From Malacoraja senta (taxonomy: Eukaryota): a DNA stretch of 64,000 bases. This document shows positions 3,575 through 59,086 of the stretch, in pieces; position 1 is the first letter of the stretch, and the number at the start of each line of letters is the position of its first letter. The translations under genes and the position numbers were made by a program. The notes below the pieces were generated by a model. It made no database searches and was not told the DNA's origin. It worked only from the letters and a program-made list of their open reading frames with translations. The DNA is taken from positions 21,020,001 through 21,084,000 of the forward strand of contig CM075989.1 of the NCBI GenBank assembly GCA_038087875.1, written 5' to 3'.

Positions 3575-4005
3575 GTCTGGCCTTGTCCTGGGCCCAGCAC
3601 ATTGATACAATTATAACGAAAGCTCACCAACTCCTCTCCTTCCTCAGAAGATTGAGGAGATTCAGCGTGATGCTGAATGCCCCTTTGGATCTCCACCGGG
3701 GTATGGTGGATTACAAGCACCGTCCGGTCATTCAAACTCACACGAACGAAGGATGCCACAGAAAGTGGTGGACACTGCCCAGTCCATCACCATCACATCA
3801 CTGACCTCCCCACCGTCGATGAGGTCTACAACAAGCTCTCGCTCAACAAAGCAACTCATCTCATTGAAGACACACACCATCCTGACCATGTTCTTTTCTC
3901 CATTGGGAAGAAGGTACAGGAGCCCGGGAACCATAATCTCCAGCTTCAAGAACAGCGTCTTCCCATCAACCTTCAGGATCTTGAACCACCCCGCACAAGC
4001 CCAAC
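3575..4005 (+). mobile_element. Rex1/Babar LINE 3' ORF fragment, frameshifted
   Basis: LSWAQHIDTIITKAHQLLSFLRRLRRF, QKVVDTAQSIT, DTHHPDHVLF and GRRYRS...FKNSVFPSTFRILN spread across frames. Confidence 0.85.
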
Positions 4006-4010
4006 CATAG

Positions 4011-4146
4011 GGTGGCACGGTGGCGCAGCGGTAGAGTTGCTGCCTCACAGTGCCAGATCGCTGGTTGGCGCAGACTCGATGGGGCAAAGGGTACGCTGTA
4101 TCTCATATCCATGCTGTATCTCTTAACTAAAGCAAACTAAACTAAA
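4011..4146 (+). mobile_element. Internally deleted V-SINE
   Basis: Head gggtggcacggtggcgcagcggtagagttgctgcc joined directly to tail gctgtatctcttaactaaa(actaa)n. Confidence 0.8.
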
Positions 4147-4149
4147 CAC

Positions 4150-4545
4150 AGAAACATCGAAAATAGGTGCAGGAGTAGGCCATTCGGCCCTTCGAGCCAG
4201 CATCACCATTCATTATCATCATGGCTGATCATCCAAAATCAGTACCCTATTCCTGCTTTCTCCCCTTATCCCTTGATTCCGTTAGCCCTAAGAGCTACAT
4301 CTAACTCTCTCTTGAAAACATCCAGTGAATTGGCCTCCACTGCCTTCTGTGGCAGAGAATTCCACAGATTCACAACTTTCTGGGTGAAAACTTTTTTTCA
4401 CATCTCAGCCCTAATTCTTATTCTTAAACTGTGATCCCTGGTTCTGGACTCCCCCAACATCGGGAACATTTTTCCTGCATCTAGCCTTTCCAATCCCTTA
4501 AGAATTTTATATGTTTCTATAAGGTGTCCTCTCATCCTTCTATGA
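4150..4545 (-). mobile_element. CR1 LINE 3' fragment
   Basis: Closely matches 5230-5615 in the same orientation. Confidence 0.9.
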
Positions 4546-4703
4546 AGGACCATAGCCCAAACTCAACACTGAACTACTTTAGACTTTGCACTACTTCCAC
4601 TGCACCATGTGGTTTGATGGCATGGTCTGGTTTACCGAGAATATGTGATCATTTATTGCATCTTTATATATGTAATGTGTGTTGTTCCATGTGAACAGGG
4701 GAC

Positions 4704-4972
4704 TCAGTCTAACCCACGGCAGAAGGGGGAGGAGTTGTACAGTTTGATAGCCACAGGGAAAAAAGATCTCCTGTGGCATTCTGTACTGCATCTTGGTGGA
4801 ACCAGTCTGTTGCTGAAGGTGCTCCTCAGCTTGACCAGTGTGTCATGGAGGGGGTGAGCTGTATTGTCCAAGATGCTCCACAGTTTGAGGAGCATCCTCC
4901 CCTCCAGGATCACCTCCCATGAATCCAACTCTGCCCCCAGGACAGAGCTAGCCTTCCTGATGAGCTTGTTAT
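4704..4972 (-). mobile_element. Rex1-type LINE C-terminal fragment
   Basis: NKLIRKASSVLGAELDSWEVILEGRMLLKLWSILDNTAHPLH...FSNRL...RRSFFPVAIKLYNSS. Confidence 0.85.
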
Positions 4973-4989
4973 CATCATGATGCCTCATA

Positions 4990-5205
4990 TACACCAGTCC
5001 CATCTGCCTGCATTTGGCCCACCCCCTTCTAAACCTTTCCCATCTATGTATCTGTCCAAATGTCTTTTAAATGTTGTGATGGTACCTGCCTCAACTACCT
5101 CCTCTGGCAGCTCGTTCCATAGAACCACCACACTTGTGTGAGAAAGTTGCCCCTCGGGTTCCTATAAATCTTTCCCCTTTCACCTCTCACTGTGACCTCT
5201 GGTAG
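4990..5205 (-). mobile_element. CR1 fragment, second subfamily
   Basis: RNPRGNFLTQV...ELPEEVVEAG-like coding; matches 39035-39330. Confidence 0.8.
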
Positions 5206-5216
5206 GTTGCTTTCTG

Positions 5217-6625
5217 CATAGATACATAGATACATAGAAAATAGGTGCAGGAGTAGGCCATTCGGCCCTTCGAGCCTGCACCGCCATTCAATATGATCAT
5301 GGCTGATCATCCAACTCAGTATCCCGTACCTGCCTTCTCTCCATACCCCCTGATCCCTTTAGCCACAAGGGCCACATCTAACTCCCTCTTAAATATAGCC
5401 AATGAACTGGCCTCAATGACCCTCTGTGGCAGAGAGTTCCAGAGATTCACCACTCTCTGTGTGAAAAAGTTTTTTCTCATCTCGGTCTTAAAGGATTTCC
5501 CCCTTATCCTTAAGCTGTGACCCCTTGTCCTGGACTTCCCCAACATCGGGAACAATCTTCCTGCATCTAGCCTGTCCAACCCCATAAGAATCTTGTAAGT
5601 TTCTATAAGATCCCCTCTCAATCTCCTAAATTCTAGCGAGTATAAGCCGAGTCTATCCAGTCTTTCTTCATATGAAAGTCCTGACATCCCAGGAATCAGT
5701 CTGGTGAACCTTCTCTGCACTCCCTCTATGGCTATAATGTCCTTCCTCAGATTTGGAGACCAAAACTGTACGCAATACTCCAGGTGTGGTCTCACCAATA
5801 CCCTGTACAACTGCAGTAGAACCTCCCTGCTCCTATACTCAAATCCTTTTGCTATGAAAGCTAACATACCATTCGCTTTCTTCACTGCCTGCTGCACCTA
5901 CATGCCTACTTTCAATGACTGGTGTACCATGACACCCAGGTCTCGCTGCATCTCCCCTTTTCCTAATCGGCCACCATTTAGATAATAGTCTGCTTTCCTG
6001 TTTTTGCCACCAAAGTGGATAACCTCACATTTATCCACATTATACTGCATCTGCCAAACATTTGCCCACTCACCCAGCCTATCTAAGTCACCTTGCAGTC
6101 CCCTAGCATCCTCCTCACAGCTAACACTGCCCCCCAGCTTAGTGTCATCCGCAAACTTGGAGATATTGCCTTCAATTCCCTCATCCAGGTCATTAATATA
6201 AATTGTAAATAGCTGGGGTCCCAGCACTGAGCCTTGTGGTACCCCACTAGTCACTGCCTGCCATTGTGAAAAGGACCAGTTTACTCCTACTCTTTGCTTC
6301 CTGTTTGCCAGCCATTTCTCTATCCACATCAATACTGAACCCCCAATACCGTGTGCTTTAAGTTTGTATATTAATCGCTTATGTGGGACCTTGTCGAAAG
6401 CCTTCTGAAAGTCCAGATACAACACATCCACTGGTTCTCCCCTATCCACTCTACTAGTTACATCCTCGAAAAATTCTATAAGATTCGTCAGACATGATTT
6501 ACCTTTCGTAAATCCATGCTGACTTTGTCCAATGATTTCACCACTTTCCAAATGTGCTGCTATCCCATCTTTAATAACTGACTCTAGCAGTTTCCCCACT
6601 ACCGATGTTAGACTAACTGGTCTGT
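5217..6625 (-). mobile_element. 5'-truncated CR1 LINE (1.4 kb) with reverse-transcriptase domain and one premature stop
   Basis: YRPVSLTSVVGKLLE, QHGFTKGKSCLTNL, YLDFQKAFDKVPH, GVPQGSVLGPQLF, KFADDTKL. Track ORFs 5898-6716 and 5316-5897 share a frame, split by TAG at 5898-5900. Microsatellite tail at 5217-5240. Confidence 0.97.
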
Positions 6626-7487
6626 ATGATAGGGATACACAGTGACTTCTATATGTTAAATTGTAATTTGATATGACAGACATTACAAATGTCAGCACAT
6701 GTGATCTAGGCTTCAAATCATGATCCTATTGAAAATGTATTTTTCCGCAACATGAAATTGTATACCTTTTTCAGATCTGTGCTCTGTTCCACTGTAGTGT
6801 ATGTTGCTCTCCAAGCCGATGTACCTCATGTACACGATGATTAGTCCTGCTCTTTCTGTCATAATACAACTTGAGGCAGTATTATCCAACCTCGCCCGTG
6901 CTCTGAAACATGCCTTTTATTGCTGCAGGGGCTTGAGTTCATTTTCGAGCGCGGGGACAGCATCTGGAAGCATTCCTTGCCTTCAATAACTAAAATGGCT
7001 AAAACAGAATGTATATATGAGACAGATTATACCAGAGGGGGACTGAAAATCTAAAACAATGTTGCAGAAATCTTAAAATATAATAACGTCATTCTCTGAG
7101 GCCAATATAATGAGTTGAAAACAATTCTTGAAGCAACTTGTTGCTTGATCGAATGGGAATATATCAAGGGGGCAATATTTTATGTTTGAAAAAAAGAAGA
7201 CTGGGTCGGAAAGGAAATGTGAGCGGAAGGGTAATCAGTATTGTGCCAGAACACAATACCCCTGGTAGGACGAGGGGGACATCAAGGGCACTGGAATTCA
7301 AAGGACATGATGCAGCTTGAGAACCAGTGGATGCAAACCAGATGACATGCAGAGTATTATTTTCACAGGGAAGTGAAGGGGCTGTCATATTAAAAATGAG
7401 AAGGACACACACCTGCTGCAAAGTTGTACCTCCTTCACTAATGCCAGGGCACATTAGGTGTGGCTTAAAAATGACGATTTATTCATT

Positions 7488-7710
7488 TCGAAGATAGACA
7501 CAAAATGCTGGAGTAACTCAGCAGGACAGGCAGCATCTCTGGAGAGAAGGAATGGGCGACGTTTTGGGTCGAGACCCGTGGGAGAAGGGTCTCGACCCGA
7601 AACGTCGGCCATTCCTTCTCTCCATAGGTGCTGCCTCACCCGCTGAGTTACTCCAGCATTTTGTGCCTACGTTCGATTTTACCAGCATCTGCAGTTGTTT
7701 CTTACACACA
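7488..7710. mobile_element. Fold-back Penelope-like terminal-repeat element
   Basis: Inverted arms gcatctctggagagaaggaatgggcgacgttttgggtcgagaccc / gggtctcgacccgaaacgtcggccattccttctctcc. Confidence 0.8.
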
Positions 7711-7934
7711 TGTAAGGTGACCATTTGATCCACTGTGTCTAAGCTGGACAAGGGTGGATCTATTTAGATTACTACCAGTTCCAATCTTTCAACATGTAAA
7801 AGAAAGAAACAAAATGCTGGAGTTACTCAGCAGGTCGGGCAGCATCTCTGGAGAAATTGGATAGGTGACATTTTGGGTTGGGACCCTTCTTTTAAGATGT
7901 AGGTCCAGTTACAAGTCATCAAGAGCTTCTCTGG

Positions 7935-8076
7935 GTGGGAGATTGCAACCTTCACGTGATCCGCCCTGTTTCGACAAATGTAATCAACCTGGTGTGCACA
8001 ATCAAATAAGATCAAATGGAACATGTTGTCCTACAACTTTAGGCTGTGCACGCCATACACAAGAAGAAGAAGAAGA
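7935..8076 (+). mobile_element. Probable RTE-type retroposon 3' end
   Basis: Ends gcacgccatacac(aag)n, similar to the tail of the RTE-like fragment at 47121-47140. Confidence 0.45.
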
Positions 8077-8339
8077 GCTTATCTGCAACTTTTAAATATG
8101 ATGAAGGCTTTCACCTCCAGCATTTTTTCAGGCATTGAGTTCTGGAGCACAACTAGCTTATGGTTGAAATTATTTTTCCTCAACTCCCCCCTTTAATTGT
8201 TCCAAATTAACTTAAAGATGGCTCTTGAAATATAATAATGTCATTCTCTGAGGCCAATATAATGAGTGGACAACGATTTTTGTAGTAACTTGTCGCCTGA
8301 TGGAAGTGAAATATCTCAAAGCAGCGGTTTTGATCCAGT

Positions 8340-8995
8340 TACTTTGCCTCGCGAAGGCTGCCAACAAAATCAAAGACCGTTCCCACCCTTCCCATTCCTT
8401 CTTCTCTCCTGTCGAGCAGTAGATACCAAAGTTTGAAAGCGCCCACCACTAGATTTAGGAAACAATTCTTCTCCTTTGTTATCAGACTTCTGAACTGCTT
8501 CCATCAGCTAGGATACAGTCTGATTCTCCTCTACCGCATAGAGGACATTGGACTTTGATATGGAACTGTTGCAGTAGAATGCTGAGAACTATATTCTGTA
8601 CTCTGTATCTCTCCCTTCATTCCACCTGTTGTACTTGAGTTTGGCTTGGTTGTATTTAAGTGCAGTGTTATGTGATTTAATTAATAATAATAATAATAAT
8701 GGATGGGATTTATATAGCGCCTTTCTAATACTCAAGGCGCTTTACATCGCATTATTCATTCACTCCTCAGTCACACTCGGTGTTGGCAAGCTACTTCTGT
8801 AGCCACAGCTGCCCTGGGGCAGACTGACGGAAGCGTGGCTGCTAATTTGCGCCTACGGCCCCTCCGACCGCCACCAATCACTCACACACATTCACACACA
8901 TTCACACGCAGGCAAAGGTGGGTGAAGTGTCTTGCCCAAGGACACAACGACAGTATGCACTGTTGCAAAACAAAGCTTCTCGCTGCACCTCGGTA
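8340..8995 (+). mobile_element. Rex/Babar LINE 3' end, interrupted by a SINE at 8683-8962
   Basis: CLAKAANKIKDRSHPSHSFFSP...RYQSLKAPTTRFR...FF..VIRLLN, then a 3' UTR resuming at gcaaaacaaagctt...cctcggta. Confidence 0.7.
8683..8962 (-). mobile_element. 5'-truncated SINE with CORE-like motif and L2-type tail
   Basis: Minus strand has gttgtgtccttgggcaagacactt (CORE-like) and tail gtaaagcgccttgag...aaggcgctatataaa...(TTA)n. Confidence 0.7.
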
Positions 8996-9047
8996 TATTT
9001 TAGTTTTAAAGTTTAGATACAGCGCGGAAACAGACACTTCGACCCAC

Positions 9048-9485
9048 CGAAGATAGACACAAAAAGCTGGAGTAACTGAGCGGGACAGGCAGCATCTCTG
9101 CAGAGAAGGAATGGGTGACGTTTTGGGTCGAGAGTGTTCTTCAGACCTCTACCGGGCTGAGGCCAGGCGACAACTCTCAGACACCTCCCCCTACTTATCC
9201 TTGGAACATGATCCCACAGATGAGCACCAGGCCTTAATCTCAAACACCATTACTGATTTCATCACTTCTGGCTGTCTGCCTTCTACAGCCTCCAACCTTA
9301 TTGTTTCCCAGTCCCGCACAGCCCGTTTTTACCTTTCCCCCACAAACACAATTGCCCTGGCAGACCCATTGTTTCTGCCTGCTTCTGTCCCACGGAAATG
9401 ACTTCCACGTACCTCGACTCCATCCTATCGCCCCTGGTCCAATCTCTCCCGACCTATGTCCAAGACACCTCACATACCCCTTTGT
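9048..9485 (+). mobile_element. Penelope-like element: inverted terminal repeat (9048-9146) fused to RT N-terminal fragment
   Basis: DLYRAEARRQLSD...DPT...RTARFYL, frameshift, then HKHNCPGRPIVSACFCPTEMTSTYLDSILSPLVQSLPTYVQDTSH (PLE-type PKIHK/GRPIVS region). Interrupts a V-SINE tail. Confidence 0.85.
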
Positions 9486-13698: not shown

Positions 13699-14004
13699 CC
13701 CTCTTATAAGAAAAAATCATTTATTTAAACAGTATTAATCAGCTACTTTTGTTCTTCATGCGTACAACAACTGGAACTCCGTGATCCAGACAGGGAATAA
13801 CAATTATAGTCTGTGAGCGCCTGGGAACGTCTGAAGGAGATTAGCCAGAAATAATGTGATGTAGAGATGTAATAGTTAGAATCTGGCAAATAGTAGCAGC
13901 AAAGAAGGATTTCAACGCAATCTCTGCCAGGCAGATCAGGACTGAATGAATCTTGTGAGAAGATAAGATTGGATAAAAAGAATGTCAATATTTCTCTGAA
14001 TCCG

Positions 14005-14828
14005 CACCGAGTCCACACCGACCAACGATCCCCGTACATTAGCACTCTCCTGCACACACGAGGGACAATTTACAAATATTAAACCCAATCAATCTTCCAA
14101 CCTGTATGTCTTTGGAGTGTGGGAGGAAACCGAAGATCTCGGAGAAAACCCACGCAGGTCACGGGGAGAACAATAGACAATAGGAGTAGGCCATTCGGCT
14201 CTTCGAGCCAGCCCCACCATTCACTGTGATCATGGTTGATCATCCACAATCAGTACCCCGTTCCTGCCTTCTCACCAGATCCCCTCTTAAGAGCTCTATC
14301 TAACTCCCCCTTGAAAGCATCCAGAGAATTGGCCTCCACTGCCTTCTGAGGCAGAGAATTCCACAGATTCACAACTCTCNNNNNNNNNNNNNNNNNNNNN
14401 NNNNNNNNNNNNNNNNNNNNNNNNNNNNNNNNNNNNNNNNNNNNNNNNNNNNNNNNNNNNNNNNNNNNNNNNNNNNNNNNNNNNNNNNNNNNNNNNNNNN
14501 NNNNNNNNNNNNNNNNNNNNNNNNNNNNNNNNNNNNNNNNNNNNNNNNNNNNNNNNNNNNNNNNNNNNNNNNNNNNNNNCAGAGAATTGGCCTCCACTGC
14601 CTTCTGAGGCAGAGAATTCCACAGATTCACAACTCTCTGGGTGAAAAAGTTTTCCTCATCTCCGTTCTAAATGGCCTACCCTTTATTATTAAATGTGGTC
14701 CCTTGTTCTGGACTGCTCCAACATCGGGAACGTACAAACTCCGTACAGACACCACCCATAGTCAGGATTGAACCCAGGTCTCTGGCGCTATAAGGCAGCT
14801 ACTCTACCGCTGTGCCATTATGCTGCCC
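14005..14828 (-). mobile_element. V-SINE interrupted by a CR1 3' fragment (14172-14730) spanning the gap
   Basis: SINE breaks at ggggagaac (14171) and resumes at gaacgtacaaactcc (~14728). Confidence 0.85.
14380..14579. other. Assembly gap (200 N)
   Basis: Run of N; identical 58-bp sequence on both sides. Confidence 1.
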
Positions 14829-14990
14829 TAAATTGATTGATTATTTATCAGATATAATCGGAAGGCATGAAAATATTTTAATCACATCATTAGAAATTGA
14901 CAAGTTTTGGAGCGTTCTGAAGCATTGGGTCACTCATTCCAATACAACGGCCATTAAATTAATATAAAATCCGGCTGGAATAGGTCACTT

Positions 14991-15217
14991 GTGTAAGAAG
15001 GAACTGCAGATGCTGGTTTAAACTGAAGATAGACACAAAAAGCTGGAGTAACTCAGCGGGACAGGCAGCATCTCTGGAGAGAAGGAATGGGTGACGTTTC
15101 GGTCAAGACCCTTTGTCAGTCTGAAGAAGGGTCTCGACCCGAAACGTCACCCATTCCTTTCTCTCCAGAGATGCTGCCATGTCCGCTGAGTTACTCCAGC
15201 TTTTTGTGTCTATCTTC
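14991..15217. mobile_element. Fold-back PLE-derived element with 14-bp TSD
   Basis: Two inverted copies of the terminal repeat; ggaataggtcactt at 14977-14990 and 15218-15231. Confidence 0.85.
15118..15152 (+). ncRNA. Minimal hammerhead ribozyme motif (type I-like)
   Basis: CTGAAGA-A-GGGT(ctcg)ACCC-GAAAC-GTC: CUGANGA and GAAA cores, stem II, palindromic ACGT in place of stem III, GUC cleavage triplet. Confidence 0.7.
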
Positions 15218-15677
15218 GGAATAGGTCACTTTCTGCGTTCAAAGTCCTGGGACTCATATGGTCAGTTTATCTATCCATCAATGAGGATTTATAGCAGTTA
15301 CGTTTGATGGCTTTACATCTCGGAATTCTAAGGCTATTTTGTGAAGGGGAAGGATGGCTACTGTGACAAAAATAAATCATCGACAGGCAACAGGAGGAGA
15401 GGCAACTGTATGTTTAGACCAAGCAGCTGCTGCCAGCTTTTAATCTCGTTATCTAACTGTAATTTGTCCACAATGCTTGAAATTCCTGTTACTATATTTA
15501 GTTATGCATATGGAGCGCTGAAGCCCTGTGCTGTAACTTAGTTAAGGTTCAAGCTACTTCAATTTGTACCATTGTTATAAAAGTCCATATTTGTCACGAT
15601 AACTGGTGTATTTTCAAGGGTGATCAAATAGAGGGTGATCTAATAGAGGGTGATCTAATAGAGGTGTATAAAATCAT

Positions 15678-19810: not shown

Positions 19811-20231
19811 AAATCTGAAAATCTTTTCCATAAAAAGCTGAGGAGGCTAAATTGGAAATATCATAATCCTACTTTATTAGCCAAGTATGTTTTGCAACAT
19901 ATGAGGAATTTGTTTTGCAGTTTTCTGTTATCTTCAGTATGATGTCCAAGTCAAATGATCCACAGTAAAAGTACAAGAAGCTCCCGTCATTTTCCCTGCC
20001 TTGCCTATATTGGTTTAGGAATCAAGAGATGATTGTCTGAAAAAACATGATGAAGTAATTCATTATCACGTTAATGGAGCTTCAGCATGGGAATTATATA
20101 GATTGTTCAATGTGATTGCAATGCCACATATAATACTCATCCTTTGAAAATCGCAAACATTATTATTGAAACTATTTATCTTTCTGCAACTAATCCCAAC
20201 AGAAATTGTAAACAGAACAATTATTACATTG

Positions 20232-20575
20232 GAGATAGACACAGAATGCTGGAGTAACTCAGCGGGACAGGCAGCATCTCTGGATAGAAGGAATGGGTGA
20301 CGTTTCGGGTGGAGACCCTTCTTCAGACTGAGAATCAGGGGAGAGGGAGACACAGATTTGGAAGGTTAAGGTGTGAGGATGAGAGATCAAAGGAGACGAA
20401 GGTCAAAGGAAATGAAGAATAGATCATTGTTAGCGAGGGGAAGTTGACAACGAGGCATACAAAGATAAAATTCAATCAGGGAGGACAGTCAGACGTCGGA
20501 GAACTAAGGTGGGGGAGGGATGGGGAGAGAGGGAAAGCAGGGTTACTTGAGATTAGAAAAATCAATATTCATGTT
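20232..20575 (-). mobile_element. Penelope-like element 3' portion (ORF end, pyrimidine-rich spacer, hammerhead repeat)
   Basis: Minus strand reads MNIDFSNLK* (~20572-20543), then the spacer and ctgaagaagggtctccacccgaaacgtc (20326-20299). Confidence 0.8.
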
Positions 20576-24060: not shown

Positions 24061-24076
24061 CTTTCACACAGAGGTT

Positions 24077-24232
24077 TTGTTTAAGAAAGAACTGCAGATG
24101 CTGGAAAAATCGAAGGTAGGCAAAAATGGTGGAGGAACTCAGAGGGTGAGGCAGCATCTATGGAGCGAAGGAATAGGTGACGTTTCGGGTCGAGACCCTT
24201 CTTCAGACTGAATTTCTCCAGCATTTTGTCCA
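24077..24232 (-). mobile_element. PLE terminal-repeat element with short fold-back arm and 16-bp TSD
   Basis: Intact hammerhead core on minus strand at 24179-24206; ctttcacacagaggtt at 24061-24076 and 24233-24248. Confidence 0.85.
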
Positions 24233-24699
24233 CTTTCACACAGAGGTTGGTTGGTGTATGGAACGAGGTGCCAGAGGAAGTAGTTGCGGCAGGTGCTACA
24301 ACAACATACAGTACATAGAATGTAGAAGAATACAGCGCAGGAACCGAGCTTTCTCCCCACAATATCTATGCTGAACAATGATGGCAGGAAACTAATCTCA
24401 CCTGCACATGATCCATATCCCTCCATTCCTGTATATCCATGTGCCTATCTCAATACCTCTTAAACGCCAAAGGCTCCAAAGAGATCTTGGATAGGTGCAT
24501 GGATAGGATAGATTTAGAGGGACCAAATGCAAGCAAATGGGACGTGTAGATGAGGCACTTTGCTCAGCATGGACTTGTTGTGCCAAACGGCCTGTTTCTG
24601 TGCTGTATAATTCTATGACTATCAAAGAATGCAAAAACAGATCATATTTTAATGTGTTGGTCATTAGGACATTACAATGCAGCACAGCGGTAGAGTAAT

Positions 24700-28121: not shown

Positions 28122-28833
28122 ATTGTAGCCAGTATGGTATCTTGATAGATCTTAAATATCGCAACCTGTGTGTGTGGAGGCCTGTGATTCAAAGCAACAT
28201 TCAGCTGTAGTACTTTATCATTCAACTTTTGGAGACTGATTGGTCTTTAACAGAGGGCAATGTAACAGGGAATGGTTTGAGTTTTTTGTAGCTGGCCGGC
28301 TATTCTTAATCAAAACAAAAAAATATGGTTTCTGTTACTGGTGCAGTCAAAATAAAAATAAAATGGCCCTGGAAAGGAAAACCTGACAGCCATCTTTATC
28401 AAAGACGCACAGTCAGGTGAGCAGGATTTATGAGGTAGAACGTACGGCTTGTTATAGTTCAGGGTGAGGGGAGTATCTAAACCTATTTGCTGTTGCTTAT
28501 GTAGGAACAGTTTCATTACTGGGTTTATTGATTGCCAATCCTTGACATGAAGGAAAAACGTCATCTACTAGGTTCCTCATTGCACAGGTCTCCTGTTGAC
28601 GAAGCTGTTTACATTGGACTTACAAGGTGCTTGGGCTGGAAAGGGTGCAGAGAAGTGTGTAGGAAGGAACCTTAAAGCATGGATAGTAGGAGAATTAGGG
28701 TAGAGTTTTGGGGCATGTGAAAGAGAGGAGAGTACATAGAACATAGAACAGTACAGATAAACAAAAAGCAGGAGCAACTCAGCTGATTCAGGCAGCATCG
28801 CTGGAGAAAAGGAATAGGTGACATTTCAGAGGA

Positions 28834-29253
28834 ATCTTTGTAAAGATTCTCTGCTGAAGAAGTCTGAAGAAGGGACTCGACAAGAACTGTCACCTGTTTA
28901 AGAAGGAACTGCAGATGCTGGAAAATCGAAGGTAGACAAAAATGCTGGAGAAACTCAGCGGGTGCAGCAGCATCTATGGAGCGAAGGAAATAGGCAACGT
29001 TTCGGCCCGAAACCCTGAAGGAAATAGGCAACGTTTCGGGCCGAAACCCTGAAGGAAATAGGCAACGATTCGGGCCGAAACCCGAAACGTTGGCTATTTC
29101 CTTCGCTCCATAGATGCTGCTGCACCCGCTGTGTTTCTCCAGCATTTTTGTCTACCTTCGATTTTCCAGCATCTGCAGTTCCTTCTTAAACAGGTGACAG
29201 TTCTTGTCGAGTCCCTTCTTCAGACTTCTTCAGCAGAGAATCTTTACAAAGAT
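28834..29253. repeat. Near-perfect 420-bp palindrome of PLE repeat plus flank, with central 34-bp x3 tandem
   Basis: Arms at ~28834-29004 and ~29082-29253 are reverse complements with very few mismatches. Confidence 0.95.
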
Positions 29254-31210: not shown

Positions 31211-31469
31211 ATGAGAAAGCCTGAACATACGAGGCACTTATGAAGAGTTCTTGACAGGTTCAAGAGCTTGTACACTTTTTTTGAACTTCGAGGTCCCTGA
31301 GAGAACCTTGCACAGTAGGAGAAGCAGCAAAACCTATCATTTAAATTGTACTTTGAGCGATTATGTGCTTCATTAGCACTAATTTCACCTCAACAACTAA
31401 TCTAGCACAGATGATTGCCTTCCGATCTTTGGAAATCCCTGAATCTTGATCAGGCACACTAGTGCAATG

Positions 31470-31672
31470 TTTAGCAAGGAACTGCAGATGCTGGTTTACA
31501 CCAAAGGTAGACACAACATGCTGGAGTAACTCAGCGGGACAGGCAGCATCTCTGGAGAGAAGGAATGGGTGACTTTTCGGGTCTGAAGAAGGGTCTCGAC
31601 CAGAAACGTCACTCATTCCTTCTCTCCAGCGATGCTACCTGTCCCGCTAAGTTACTCCAGCATTTTGTGTCT
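31470..31672. mobile_element. Fold-back PLE-derived element
   Basis: Inverted arms; hammerhead core at 31583-31610 (+). Confidence 0.8.
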
Positions 31673-32139
31673 GCATTAGCGCTCTGCTTTTGGCTACAAG
31701 AACGTATCGACTAATGTTGTAGCCTAAACCAGAGGCAAGTCCAAAAATGATGATGAAGATACTTTATTGTCACATGTACCTAGGTACAGTGAAATTCTTT
31801 GTTTTGCATATAATCCAGTAAAATTATAGTAGATGAGCACAATCATAGATAAGTGCAAAAGTGCAATGATTGTAGTGCAATTCCAGACTTCACCGAGACA
31901 GTTCACAAAGAGTCGCCATGTTTCTGGTGCCCACAAAGTTTCAAAGTTCCTAAGAGTGCAGTCTTCTCTTGACCTTAAAGGCCCGTTGTCCTGGCAACAC
32001 CGATCCTCTCCTCCATCCACCGCCATTTTGAAAACGGCCCCTTGTCCAGCGTCCGCTGTGGTTGCCGACTCCCTGCTATACAATAGTGCTGGCATGGTAA
32101 TCTGATTAATAATGTTTGGTGAGAAGAAGGAGTTTCCAA

Positions 32140-33944: not shown

Positions 33945-34260
33945 GGCCCTTGCTGTCCCTCTCTCTCAATCCCTCCCCCTTCCCAGTTCTCCGACTAGTC
34001 TGGCTGTCTCTGAATACATTTTATCTCTGTTTGCTTTGATGTCGCCTTCTCCTAGCTAACAAAGATCTATTCTACATTTTCCTTGATCTCCACCCGCTTT
34101 GATGTCTCATTCTCACACCTTACACTTCCTTATCTCTGTATCTCCCCCTCCCCTGAACTCTCAGTCTGAAGAAGGGTCTCGACCTGAAACGTCACCCATT
34201 CCTTCTCTCCAGAGATGCTGCCTGTCCCGCTGAGTTACTTCAGCATTTTGTGTCTATTTC
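33945..34260 (+). mobile_element. Penelope-like 3' region with hammerhead repeat
   Basis: Reverse complement of 20232-20540 and 58762-59065; core ctgaagaagggtctcgacctgaaacgtc at 34166-34193. A further copy lies at 34618-34718. Confidence 0.8.
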
Positions 34261-34842
34261 TGGAATTTTAATGTTTTTGATCAATGAATTGCAAAGAAAT
34301 GTTTAAAAGGAGATAAGAGTGTCTGATGTTCCTCAAATACAACAGGGTTTTTAGCATTTTGGTCCATTATTAGCTTATCTAAAACAAGAAGTAGAGGGTG
34401 CTGGACATAGTTAGCAGGTCAGGTAGGTAGGACAGAGAGAAATGGAGTCAACATTTCAAGTTGATGTTGAAAACTACAGGGAAACAGCAATTAGACCATA
34501 ACTGAAGGAGAGGTTGCTGGATGTAATGTAAACGGGCCATGTTGCATCTCCTGTTCGCTTTATAGGCCGGTATCAGTTGTCGCTTGTAAATGAATCTGCT
34601 GCCATTCAAACATTCACCCAGTCTGAAGAAGGATCTCGAATCGAAACGTCACCTGTTACTTTTCCCCTGAGATGCTGCCTGACCCGCTGAGTTACTCCAG
34701 CTCTCTGTGTCCATCTTCTTTAAATAAAATATATCAATTGGAGAGACATTGTTTTGCCTCAGAATACCTGTTCAGTGGGTTTTCATTGATAGGTGTCAGC
34801 ACCGAGCTTTTATCCTTGGTACCGATGATATTCACCAAGCAC

Positions 34843-50454: not shown

Positions 50455-51090
50455 GAAAAGACACAAAGTGCCGGAGTAACTCAGCGGGTCAGGCAGCATC
50501 TCTGGAGGGAATAAGTAAGTAAGTTTATTGGCCAAATATTCACATACAAGGAATTTGCCTTGGTGCTCCGCCCACAAGTAACAACATGACATACAGTGAC
50601 AGTTACGAATGACTCAGAAAACACTAAACATTAATAATAATAAAACATTAATGATAAAACACCATTGGTCAAGCATGTGAACCAACAAAATACCAGATCA
50701 AATGGTATCACGGCTGCCCAGATCAATGGGTAAGACGTTTCAGGTCAGGACCCTTCTTCAGGCTGTAATGGGGGTGGGGGGGTGGGGGGGGGGTAGAATG
50801 CTGGAAGAGAGGTGTGGTGGGACTTAGGTGGGTGAGTGATAGGTGGATACAGGTGAGGGGGATGTATGATGGGCTGATCGTTGGATAAATGCCAGTGATG
50901 GAAAGACAGAAGGTGTGAGATAATAGAGAGATAAGGCACAACATGTGAAGCTGGAGGAAAGGATATAGGTAGAAGGGGAAACATGAGGTGGGATAAATGG
51001 GGACAAGGGTGGACAGCCACGGGGCGAGAGGGAAGGGAGGGGGGGGGGTGTTGTAGCTTAGTTATCTAAAATTGAAGAATTGAATGTCCT
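50455..51090 (-). mobile_element. Old Penelope-like 3' region interrupted by a LINE tail (50512-50722)
   Basis: Core gacgtttcaggtcaggacccttcttcag at 50734-50761; ORF end DIQFFNFR* near 51062-51088. The insert is homologous to 54320-54455. Confidence 0.65.
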
Positions 51091-57420: not shown

Positions 57421-58761
57421 GTTATTAAATCCTTGAGATACCAGGGTTGGCTTCTTTGCCAGAGGTGATTACTGTGTAACTGAAACACCGTAGAGTATTT
57501 AATTGTCCATAAAAGTGTAAAAGCCTCTTGGATTTTATTAAGCAACGAATTGTAAAAATAACCAATTTGCTTTGAGAAGGGCTCTCAGTGTCATAGAAAC
57601 AAAGCAAGGATTAAAGGTAACAACTGTTTTTGAGCAGAACTTGTTCTTATCACATTTGACCTTGAGTGGAGTAGCCATGTGGTGTTCCAACCATCAACAT
57701 GGGTGCGGGAAATGACAGAAGATGCATCACTCTGCACTAAATATTGTGATAACTAGGGGCGGCTAAGGTCAAATCTATATTGTCATATAAAAGCATGTGG
57801 GGGGACTAATTTATATCTGAATCCATCCTTTGATTAAAGGTCACGCGCGTACAATTGGTCATAGAATTTACAAAAACATGGAACCGGTGTTAGTGTTAAT
57901 CATTTAATCAGCCAGAGAAATAAAGAAAGTAAGCGGGTTTCCATAACAACCAGAGTACAACAGTATGTACAACGATGAGATCAAATTGATGCCACAAATC
58001 TGCAAATAAGATTCACAAGATGTTTGTGACTCTATTGCCCACAATTGTAATGTTGGATATGAATGACAGCAGTGTATAATTTAAAATTATGAGTGTTTGA
58101 TAGTTTCTTTCATTTAGCTGGTATGAAGTCCTAGTGCGGAGGAAGCTTAATACTTCTTCCAAATTTGATTTGATTACCGTACCTTAAATTAAACGTTTTT
58201 TTCACTTCATTCCATGTTCTAGCCGAATGCGTTTTGTATTGAAACTCACCCAGGTCAGTACACGTTGACAAACCTGACACTTAAGTAATGTTGTAATGAA
58301 GCCTACCTGTAAAAAAGTAAATACTGTTAACCATATTTCCCACGAGGGGCCCGAGTATTTCAACTCCTTGCCTTGTCACTAAGGTACGATTCCAGGAACC
58401 CTGCTCATGGAAGTCTAATGCTCCTGCTTTTTTTTTCTCCTATCGATAGCTTCAGAAAATGTTGTACATCACCTGAATTTTCATTCCTTATAATAGTTTT
58501 ATTCAACTTCTTTGCGTTATTATTCATTCCCGGCAAATGCTTTGATTGCTGTTTCGTGTAGTGCAGATACAGCATGGAAACAGGCCCCACAGTCCACTGA
58601 GTCCACACTGACCATTGTTCACACTAATTCCCTGTTATCCCACATTCTCATCCATTCCCAACACGCTAGGGGTGATTTACAGAGGTGGGTTCAGCTTCAA
58701 GCCCCGCACGTCTTTGGGATGCGAGAGGAAACCAGAATGACTGGAGGTAACCCACGCGGTC

Positions 58762-59086
58762 ACAAAACGCTGGAGTAACTCAGCGGGACAGGCAGCATCT
58801 CTGGAGAGAAGGAACGGGTGACGTTTCGGGTTGACACCCTTCTTCAGACTGACGCCAAGGGGGAGGGAGATAGATAGATAGATAAGGAAGTGTAAGGTGT
58901 GAAAACAGGGCAAAGGGAATGGAGATCAAGGAAAATGTAGATTAGATCATTGTTAGCTGGAAGAAGGTAACAACAAAGCAAACAGAGATGAAATGTAGTT
59001 GGAGACAGTAAGGCAGGTCAGAGAACTGGGAAGGGGGAAGAATGGAGAGAGAGGGAAAGCAAGGATTACTTGAAGTTAGAGAAGTC
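58762..59086 (-). mobile_element. Penelope-like 3' region inserted in a V-SINE (58560-59725)
   Basis: DFSNFK* ORF end at ~59086-59066, spacer, core at 58820-58847; SINE resumes at 59087. Confidence 0.8.

Follow-up and report, generated by a model that had tools for sequence, protein, structure and literature searches.

The motif at position 15121 of the window, by which we mean the whole stretch of 64,000 nucleotides of the skate Malacoraja senta analysed here (GCA_038087875.1, contig CM075989.1, positions 21,020,001 to 21,084,000), is probably (0.65) a hammerhead of the minimal kind, situated at the 5' edge of the terminal repeat (pLTR) in a Neptune-type Penelope-like retrotransposon (PLE) that is very abundant, the 130-bp repeats of the window being short pasted pLTR copies that are likely to cut RNA little or not at all. 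Hammerheads of Penelope pLTRs are already known, and the skate family adds one with an unusually short stem I. The added value of this family lies in its scale and in the handle it gives on mechanism: its abundance and the statistics of its copy ends make the role of PLE hammerheads testable.

The motif and its parent element

A hammerhead core is present where the first-pass annotation had placed it, with C3 at 15121 and the core extending over 15121-15148 (Table 1). The loose core pattern matches the window 15 times, compared with a chance expectation of 0.7, and the exact core geometry is kept in 6 window pieces. Seven cores had been listed in that annotation; every place named holds a core, but only four of these (15121, 20326, 24206 and 58847) are fully intact, the C3 positions on the minus strand being 20326, 24206, 50761 and 58847. 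The G10.1-C11.1 pair is broken in copy 31583 and replaced by G-U in 34166 and 50761, and stem I is absent from 50761. The estimate of about 30 places for the repeat was too low, with 56 pieces in 36 clusters identified by a profile search, whereas the density of one repeat per 2 kb given alongside it matches the clusters. Among the loop variants reported, ctcc, gtca and cctg are not subfamily states; the subfamily loops are CTCG, TTCG and CCCG/CCCA.

Table 1. Coordinates of the features in the window.
Feature	Position	Strand	Remarks
Inverted pLTR fused to RT fragment of the same element	9030..9478	.	pLTR 9147-9030 on minus strand; RT fragment 9144-9478 on plus strand; tblastn 70-75% identity, E 1e-37
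Target-site duplication, left copy, 14 bp	14977..14990	+	Exact direct repeat, elsewhere in the window only at 15218-15231
Inverted long pLTR arm with 30-40 nt tail	14991..15120	-	Own core (C3 15119) no longer intact, with G8 changed to A and one base missing from stem II
Head-to-head junction on near-palindrome TCAG-T-CTGA	15116..15124	.	CUGA box and the bases directly upstream
Sense short pLTR arm without tail	15118..15217	+	Predicted to form one hairpin of ~100 bp with the inverted arm
Minimal type I hammerhead motif	15119..15150	+	Sequence read, pattern match, comparison with PMC4209133
Parts of the motif	15119..15150	+	Stem I 5' GT 15119-15120; CUGAAGA 15121-15127; extra A 15128; stem II 15129-15140 (GGGT 15129-15132, loop ctcg, ACCC 15137-15140); GAAA 15141-15144; palindromic CG 15145-15146; U16.1-C17 15147-15148 (GAAA-CG-TC box runs to 15148); stem I 3' AC 15149-15150
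Predicted cut	15148/15149	+
Target-site duplication, right copy, 14 bp	15218..15231	+
5'-truncated element end	20209..20572	-	Last ORF codons, ~220-nt pyrimidine-rich 3' UTR, intact core (C3 20326)
pLTR copy with short inverted remnant	24075..24232	-	Intact core (C3 24206); 16-bp duplication 24061-24076 / 24233-24248
Second fold-back pair	31466..31676	.	Sense core 31583, C11.1 to A
5'-truncated element end with UTR	33946..34267	+	Core 34166, G-U at 10.1-11.1
Core 50761 with pyrimidine-rich upstream part	50725..50765	-	Stem I lost; homology ends a few bases 3' of the core, followed by unrelated sequence
5'-truncated element end with UTR	58759..59086	-	Intact core (C3 58847)

The motif shares with the minimal PLE hammerheads (Cervera and De la Pena 2014, PMC4209133, in its available sections) the CUGANGA box with an extra base, the G10.1-C11.1 pair, the GAAA-CG-UH box without a loop III and the location in the pLTR, and in both cases the copies are mostly dispersed, occurring singly or on opposite strands. 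The differences are that stem II is 4 bp here and that helix I is 2 bp, in contrast to 3-6 bp in the 11 vertebrate rows of Fig. S3, a length of 2 bp being found also in the Culex, Oikopleura and some of the Drosophila rows. Stem I had been put at 2-4 bp in the first-pass annotation; in the 6 window copies that retain a stem I, its length is always 2 bp and never 3-4 bp. Because of this short stem, no window copy passes the strict published descriptor (RNAMotif, PMC4209133 Fig. S7), which was re-implemented here and requires a stem I of at least 3 bp: the hammerhead search that had been proposed as a check returned 0 of 11 matches in the window. In a random sample 4 of 43 matches pass, so that a search with this requirement misses about nine in ten such motifs here, and a stem I of 2 bp is reached by 6 matches in the window and 31 in the random sample. 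The motif belongs outside the strict descriptor of PMC4209133, the wider set of which has 2-bp cases.

An Rfam scan of the window, which is uninformative for a hammerhead core without stem III, contained no match to hammerhead families at E <= 1; the matches on the fold-back pairs were to hairpin-shaped microRNA models and fell below their gathering scores. A longer stem I in a distal register was also considered and rejected, as by eye it would add at most 1-2 pairs behind a 2x2 loop and its formation is not predicted. Another hammerhead family, distinguished by an extended stem II, was likewise considered and rejected: by eye, among 100 matches listed of 253, nearly all are insertion variants of the family described here.

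The 15121 core lies in the pLTR of a Neptune-type PLE. In longer copies, the motif is preceded by a pyrimidine-rich UTR of 90-240 nt and, upstream of it, by the stop codon that ends a GIY-YIG domain, and the pLTR was found downstream of 49 of the 60 distinct ORF ends. The attribution to a minimal hammerhead of a PLE made in the first-pass annotation is thus upheld by the parent ORF, with the same motif at the element end, and the palindromic, vestigial stem III is borne out by CG in the consensuses of all five subfamilies. The reverse transcriptase (RT) domain (PF00078, E 6e-7, above the cut-off), with DKG and YIDD motifs, is found in locus L076, where the C-terminal part is frameshifted. Matches to GIY-YIG (PF01541) are weak (E 3.5e-4 to 8e-3, under the curated cut-off), and the YIGKT motif is present. 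Another locus (L072) contains the linker CNRRRCNTC (CX4CXXC) and the CCHH residues of the endonuclease (CIRCSRC, AEH, AQHF). The pLTR flanks the RT and GIY-YIG ORF in L076 and in L079. In L079, a partial tandem, a decayed ORF lies between two motifs on one strand that are 3,921 nt from each other. An open full-length ORF was not seen in any of the 10 long loci that were examined. Among named sequences, the nearest relatives of the RT come from skates (77-79% over half of the query), followed by those of a bamboo shark (70%) and of a devil ray (69%).

A CX2-5CxxC linker together with a CCHH endonuclease marks the EN+ elements of the Neptune clade (PMC8557442), in which, as here, an RT with DKG and YIDD and this linker are combined with a C-terminal GIY-YIG domain with CCHH, and partial tandems, an inverted 5' copy and a tail at one end are found. 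The assignment to Neptune is made by motifs, and Nematis, which has a reduced linker, is excluded by motif only. The hallmarks of EN+ insertion, namely an inverted 5' pLTR, a tail at one end and a short target duplication, are all present; unlike the description of the Neptune clade in the available sections of PMC8557442, most copies here consist of the pLTR only. A chance resemblance inside an unrelated SINE or MITE might be suggested by the Rfam result and by the likeness of the fold-back pairs to small inverted-repeat elements, and is given next to no weight: it is refuted by the link between motif and ORF, the motif occupying a fixed place after the GIY-YIG ORF end, and the core, the extra base, G10.1-C11.1 and the palindrome match the published minimal consensus (PMC4209133).

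Cartilaginous fish are absent from Table S1 and Fig. S3 of PMC4209133. A literature search, with Repbase and most subscription journals outside its scope, returned no paper on PLE hammerheads of sharks, skates and rays and none on a pile-up of copies at a 5' edge; Lunse et al. 2017 may include cartilaginous-fish examples.

Several other observations concern the surroundings of the element. In the window, tblastn finds the RT fragment at 9144-9478 as the sole ORF remnant of the element. A hidden full-length element between the minus-strand cores 24206 and 20326, which are 3.9 kb apart, was considered and dismissed, as there is no ORF between them and the spacing is a coincidence. A fragment of another retroelement, which we take to resemble a CR1-type LINE, lies at 5316-6725 on the minus strand (RT domain PF00078, E 5e-33), and an assembly gap of 200 N beside LINE fragments is located at 14000-14800, a few hundred bases to the left of the focal locus. 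At least two other abundant families of ~300 bp account for much of the 25.6 kb of self-similar sequence in the window. Outside the window, L079 (G000:C110:732000-738000) sits in a minisatellite with a unit of ~34 nt and contains an unrelated insertion of ~390 nt in the RT region. Finally, one tail-plus-body fragment is found within another repeat and recurs on many contigs (L146-L153, L157, L160-L167), and has therefore been amplified as cargo or by segmental duplication.

Abundance and conservation of the motif

The suggestion of the first-pass annotation that this genome holds very many such motifs is confirmed by 75,706 exact fixed-geometry cores (control 1) in 1.94 Gb, that is, 39 per Mb; the exact 37-base stretch occurs 6,741 times, and when stems I and II are specified, there are 45,500 genome matches (control 0; a few C-A mismatches are let through). 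In 59 unselected 10-kb stretches, 23 strict cores extrapolate to 75,900, in agreement with the direct count, and 314 pLTR pieces to ~1.0 million genome-wide (bootstrap 0.87-1.2 million). The numbers published for coelacanth (~4,000) and Xenopus (~9,000) were obtained with the 3-bp stem I descriptor (PMC4209133, available sections); the raw core count here is far above them, but the counts are not like for like because of the small fraction of matches that this descriptor passes, and under the 3-bp rule 4 matches in 589 kb, or roughly 13,000 genome-wide, come near their 4,000-9,000. For axolotl, 126,247 canonical motifs have been reported (PMC7229834; bioRxiv 10.64898/2026.07.22.740005).

The arrangement of these copies lends no support to their acting as dimers, the mode that the first-pass annotation had in view: head-to-head inverted pairs, where the motif is predicted to pair with the antisense arm, as computed for the focal pair, hold 170 of the 371 sampled pieces (~46%), and of the 99 neighbour gaps among the first 100 intact copies listed only 2 are on the same strand and within 200 nt. 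The 72 close pairs in 663 kb, a sample that includes the repeat-rich window, correspond to roughly 200,000 hairpins genome-wide, and inverted pairs as large as these would supply host transcripts with much double-stranded RNA. The non-LTR retrozymes (PMC7229834; bioRxiv 10.64898/2026.07.22.740005), as far as these sources are available, are similar in their type I hammerheads and in their many non-coding copies derived from PLE pLTRs; they differ in being head-to-tail tandems, with canonical stems in axolotl, whereas the copies described here are solo or head-to-head and have a minimal core. Head-to-tail units, each with a complete hammerhead, were not found in the window: the sole tandem array of this repeat there, at 28983-29083, consists of three 34-nt head-to-tail units of a GUU-type subfamily without a CUGA box, located inside a nested inverted structure (28755-29253). 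Tandem retrozymes are reported in one chondrichthyan (bioRxiv 10.64898/2026.07.22.740005), and the supplements of that preprint may list the skate family.

Five subfamilies were clustered on the 3' flank alone, using 168 pieces after 26 of 194 had been dropped as long-deletion pieces; divergence from the subfamily consensus is 7-17%. The CUGANGA and GAAANNUH boxes are present, none of the 11 core positions varies in the five consensuses, and the extra base 9/10.1, G10.1-C11.1 and a stem II within 3-7 bp are found in all five. A core no more conserved than the flank had been named in the first-pass annotation as a refutation; the trend is towards a more conserved core, with 13 of 60 flank positions varying, but it is not significant (p = 0.09; p about 0.01 if deletion clusters are counted as variation), and p = 0.32 for the core versus the inner flank block. 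Per-copy conservation is 0.93 versus 0.83 (p = 8e-4), a difference exaggerated by alignment-edge bias and by the mixing of subfamilies. The six subfamily changes in the 32-nt motif affect three loop bases, C17 (to U) and two A-U pairs that become G-U (11.4 and 1.1), and all of them miss the core and the palindrome (chance p 0.03-0.06). Of the covariation that had been proposed as a further check, no case was seen in stem II between the five subfamilies: none of its pairs shows a two-sided (compensatory) change, and the stem changes are all one-sided, to G-U. N7, which is free to vary without loss of catalysis, is likewise as constant as the core. In individual pieces, G10.1-C11.1 is G-C in 147 of 242, with G-T, the expected product of CpG decay, as the most frequent departure, and the palindromic 15.2-16.2, without a loop III, is CG in 126 of 242. 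The trend speaks for a ribozyme under selection but falls short of proof.

Fold-back insertions, copy ends and the putative route of copying

The focal locus at 14991-15217 is one insertion that consists of an inverted long arm with a tail, a junction and a short sense arm, with a target duplication. The junction overlaps an initiator-like YYANWYY at 15116-15122. Junction overlaps of equal size (-5/-6 nt) are found in 11 of 85 head-to-head pairs. Among the 72 close pairs, the tail is present on exactly one arm in 53, compared with 34.8 expected, and a duplication of at least 8 bp is found in 16, compared with 2.8% in the control.

The 5' ends of the copies are concentrated just upstream of the core. 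Of the pieces extending to the 3' part (353), 53 have their start 3' of the cut site and 93 have it in the core or in stem II, and the remaining 207 extend as far as the CUGA box; 188 of these 207 were classified, and 144 stop at the 5' edge, within ~8 nt of C3 (82 solo and 62 against an inverted arm), while 44 continue into the UTR. Expressed as a simple rate, 5' ends occur at 7% per nt at the edge, compared with a 3'-flank value of 0.26% per nt; 3 of the 353 pieces begin at the cut site +/-1, versus 9 and 15 in the flanking 7-nt stretches. The edge is graded over several bases rather than confined to a single base. The ORF end is reached by 20 of 46 UTR-bearing pieces, and YYANWYY, which we take to be the initiator consensus, is present at the edge in 37 of the 46 UTR-bearing copies. 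In 30 loci selected by the element body and inspected by eye, many of them duplicates, same-strand UTR upstream of the motif was seen only in the query locus (L141), and 4 of the 30 start at about -5 to +1. In an RNA run of a related species (X23), loose ends with unrelated flanks are located at -3 and -2 (2,074 and 1,899 reads).

This concentration of 5' ends just upstream of the core, rather than at the predicted cut, makes it likely that the templates were uncut RNA molecules that began at this edge; taken over several hundred sampled insertions, the ends thus suggest an uncut RNA template and point to an RNA start. The RNA of the element would start at the initiator-like TCAGT adjoining the core, and RT would begin at internal sites ~100 and 135 nt downstream and run off the uncut 5' end, giving short copies. 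The focal fold-back pair could have formed when two cDNAs primed on opposite strands joined on the near-palindrome TCAG-T-CTGA. Drosophila Penelope has an internal promoter, with the start site in the pLTR (PMC2377424; PMC8557442), and rotifer elements share the fold-back insertion architecture (PMC3846280). In the Poseidon element PAc of the green anole (PMC11167929, available sections), which also has a pLTR hammerhead, RT starts at two internal sites bounding the tail, cleavage and extension take place on both target strands, the hammerhead needs protein in order to cut, the main template is uncut RNA, and RNA-seq ends are absent at the cut site; PAc belongs to another clade, its ORF starts inside the hammerhead, and the biochemistry is that of PAc only.

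For the step that concerns the 5' edge alone, we consider it possible, albeit clearly the weaker option, that the edge reflects an RT stop or self-priming at the palindrome or hairpin, for example on an antisense template, and not an RNA start. The junctions lie on a near-palindrome, ends are also raised within the core (1.2% per nt), the predicted competing hairpin (see below) spans the edge region, and self-priming at junction palindromes has been proposed for rotifer elements (PMC3846280, available sections); on the other hand, 92 of 205 pieces have the edge without an inverted partner directly upstream, the edge coincides with the initiator-like motif, and the pLTRs of Drosophila Penelope hold the start site (PMC2377424). 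A splice acceptor formed by the pyrimidine tract and CAG before the core was rejected, as there is no GT..AG among the 15 joints shown of 453 and no shared upstream exon in short solo copies.

On the preferred reading of an RNA start at the edge, we would tentatively, with distinctly less than even confidence, view the million short copies as a fossil record of the Penelope cycle in vivo, that is, as run-off cDNAs from capped, uncut RNA that starts at the hammerhead edge, synthesised on each of the two target strands and linked at the CUGA palindrome. As part of the same proposal, the conserved rival hairpin could be an off-switch, the ribozyme cutting only once the element protein has opened it. 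With this 2-bp-stem variant, which the standard search does not pick up, skate genomes would hold hammerheads at the highest density known and give rise to some 200,000 RNA hairpins of the fold-back type.

A donor-like AAG|GTATGT is located ~30 nt into the element body (L079:805-820 and L142-L170), a position that would fit an intron in the 5' UTR like that of Drosophila Penelope; no splice joint at this site was seen in four RNA runs of low depth.

Folding, transcripts and likely activity

In nearest-neighbour folding, the probability of stem II is at most 0.19, as the bases right after the cut site offer a pairing partner to the 5' box and GGGU, and the dimer hammerhead is predicted to lie 15-22 kcal/mol above the best two-strand fold. 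The folding ignores tertiary contacts, so that the hammerhead fold is perhaps understated, and was computed without a published motif as a control. The competing hairpin is thus predicted to outcompete the hammerhead and to keep a lone motif off. RNA of the whole focal insertion is predicted to form a single hairpin (-170.4 kcal/mol, z = -21), with the hammerhead taken up in pairs with the antisense arm, and the focal copy is most likely inert, cutting little if at all. In a parent transcript, the two pLTR hammerheads might pair via ACGU and cut slowly, likely only with the element protein.

The RNA evidence comes from raw reads of a related species, as none of the records found to contain the repeat stretch is of RNA. 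In run X23, 39,893 of 12,895,792 reads (0.31%) fall on the element end, in about equal orientations, and 97% of these continue into other sequence, compared with only 627 reads on the 1.75-kb element body; the motif thus enters transcripts chiefly as a passenger. Molecule ends showed no reported pile-up, which is weak evidence given fragmented libraries and a threshold of one fifth of the depth.

Two other accounts of the activity have to be weighed against a minimal hammerhead whose pasted copies cut little. The motif might descend from a hammerhead that no longer cuts in this lineage and be kept as part of an internal promoter or as a binding site for an element protein. We consider this unlikely but worth keeping in view: the 2-bp stem I, the unfavourable stem II and dimer predictions, the invariance of N7 and of the stem II identities without compensatory change, and the absence of a pile-up of copy starts or RNA ends at the cut site all speak for it, whereas all subfamily changes fall at tolerated positions, published PLE hammerheads include some with a 2-bp helix I, one of which cut once helix III was lengthened (PMC4209133), and the anole motif is silent alone and cuts with protein (PMC11167929, both in their available sections). 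The opposite possibility is the strong form of the reading in the first-pass annotation: dispersed copies in their tens of thousands would act as dimeric ribozymes and cleave host pre-mRNAs. It could draw on the sheer number of exact cores and on the read fraction of X23 with its continuation into other sequence. It appears quite improbable, given that nearly half of the pieces are in inverted pairs, that close same-strand intact pairs are rare, that activity in the published cases is low even as dimers (PMC4209133, available sections) and, with the reservations on libraries and threshold noted above, that read ends do not pile up.

Opposite-strand joints in runs X23 and X24 (e.g. 659/707, with 122 reads in X23) suggest that fold-back pairs are transcribed in this related species, although the joints may also be library chimeras. 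Finally, a skate gene model annotated as 'nicotinamide riboside kinase 1 isoform X1' contains element sequence at 77% identity, which might represent exonisation or an annotation artefact.
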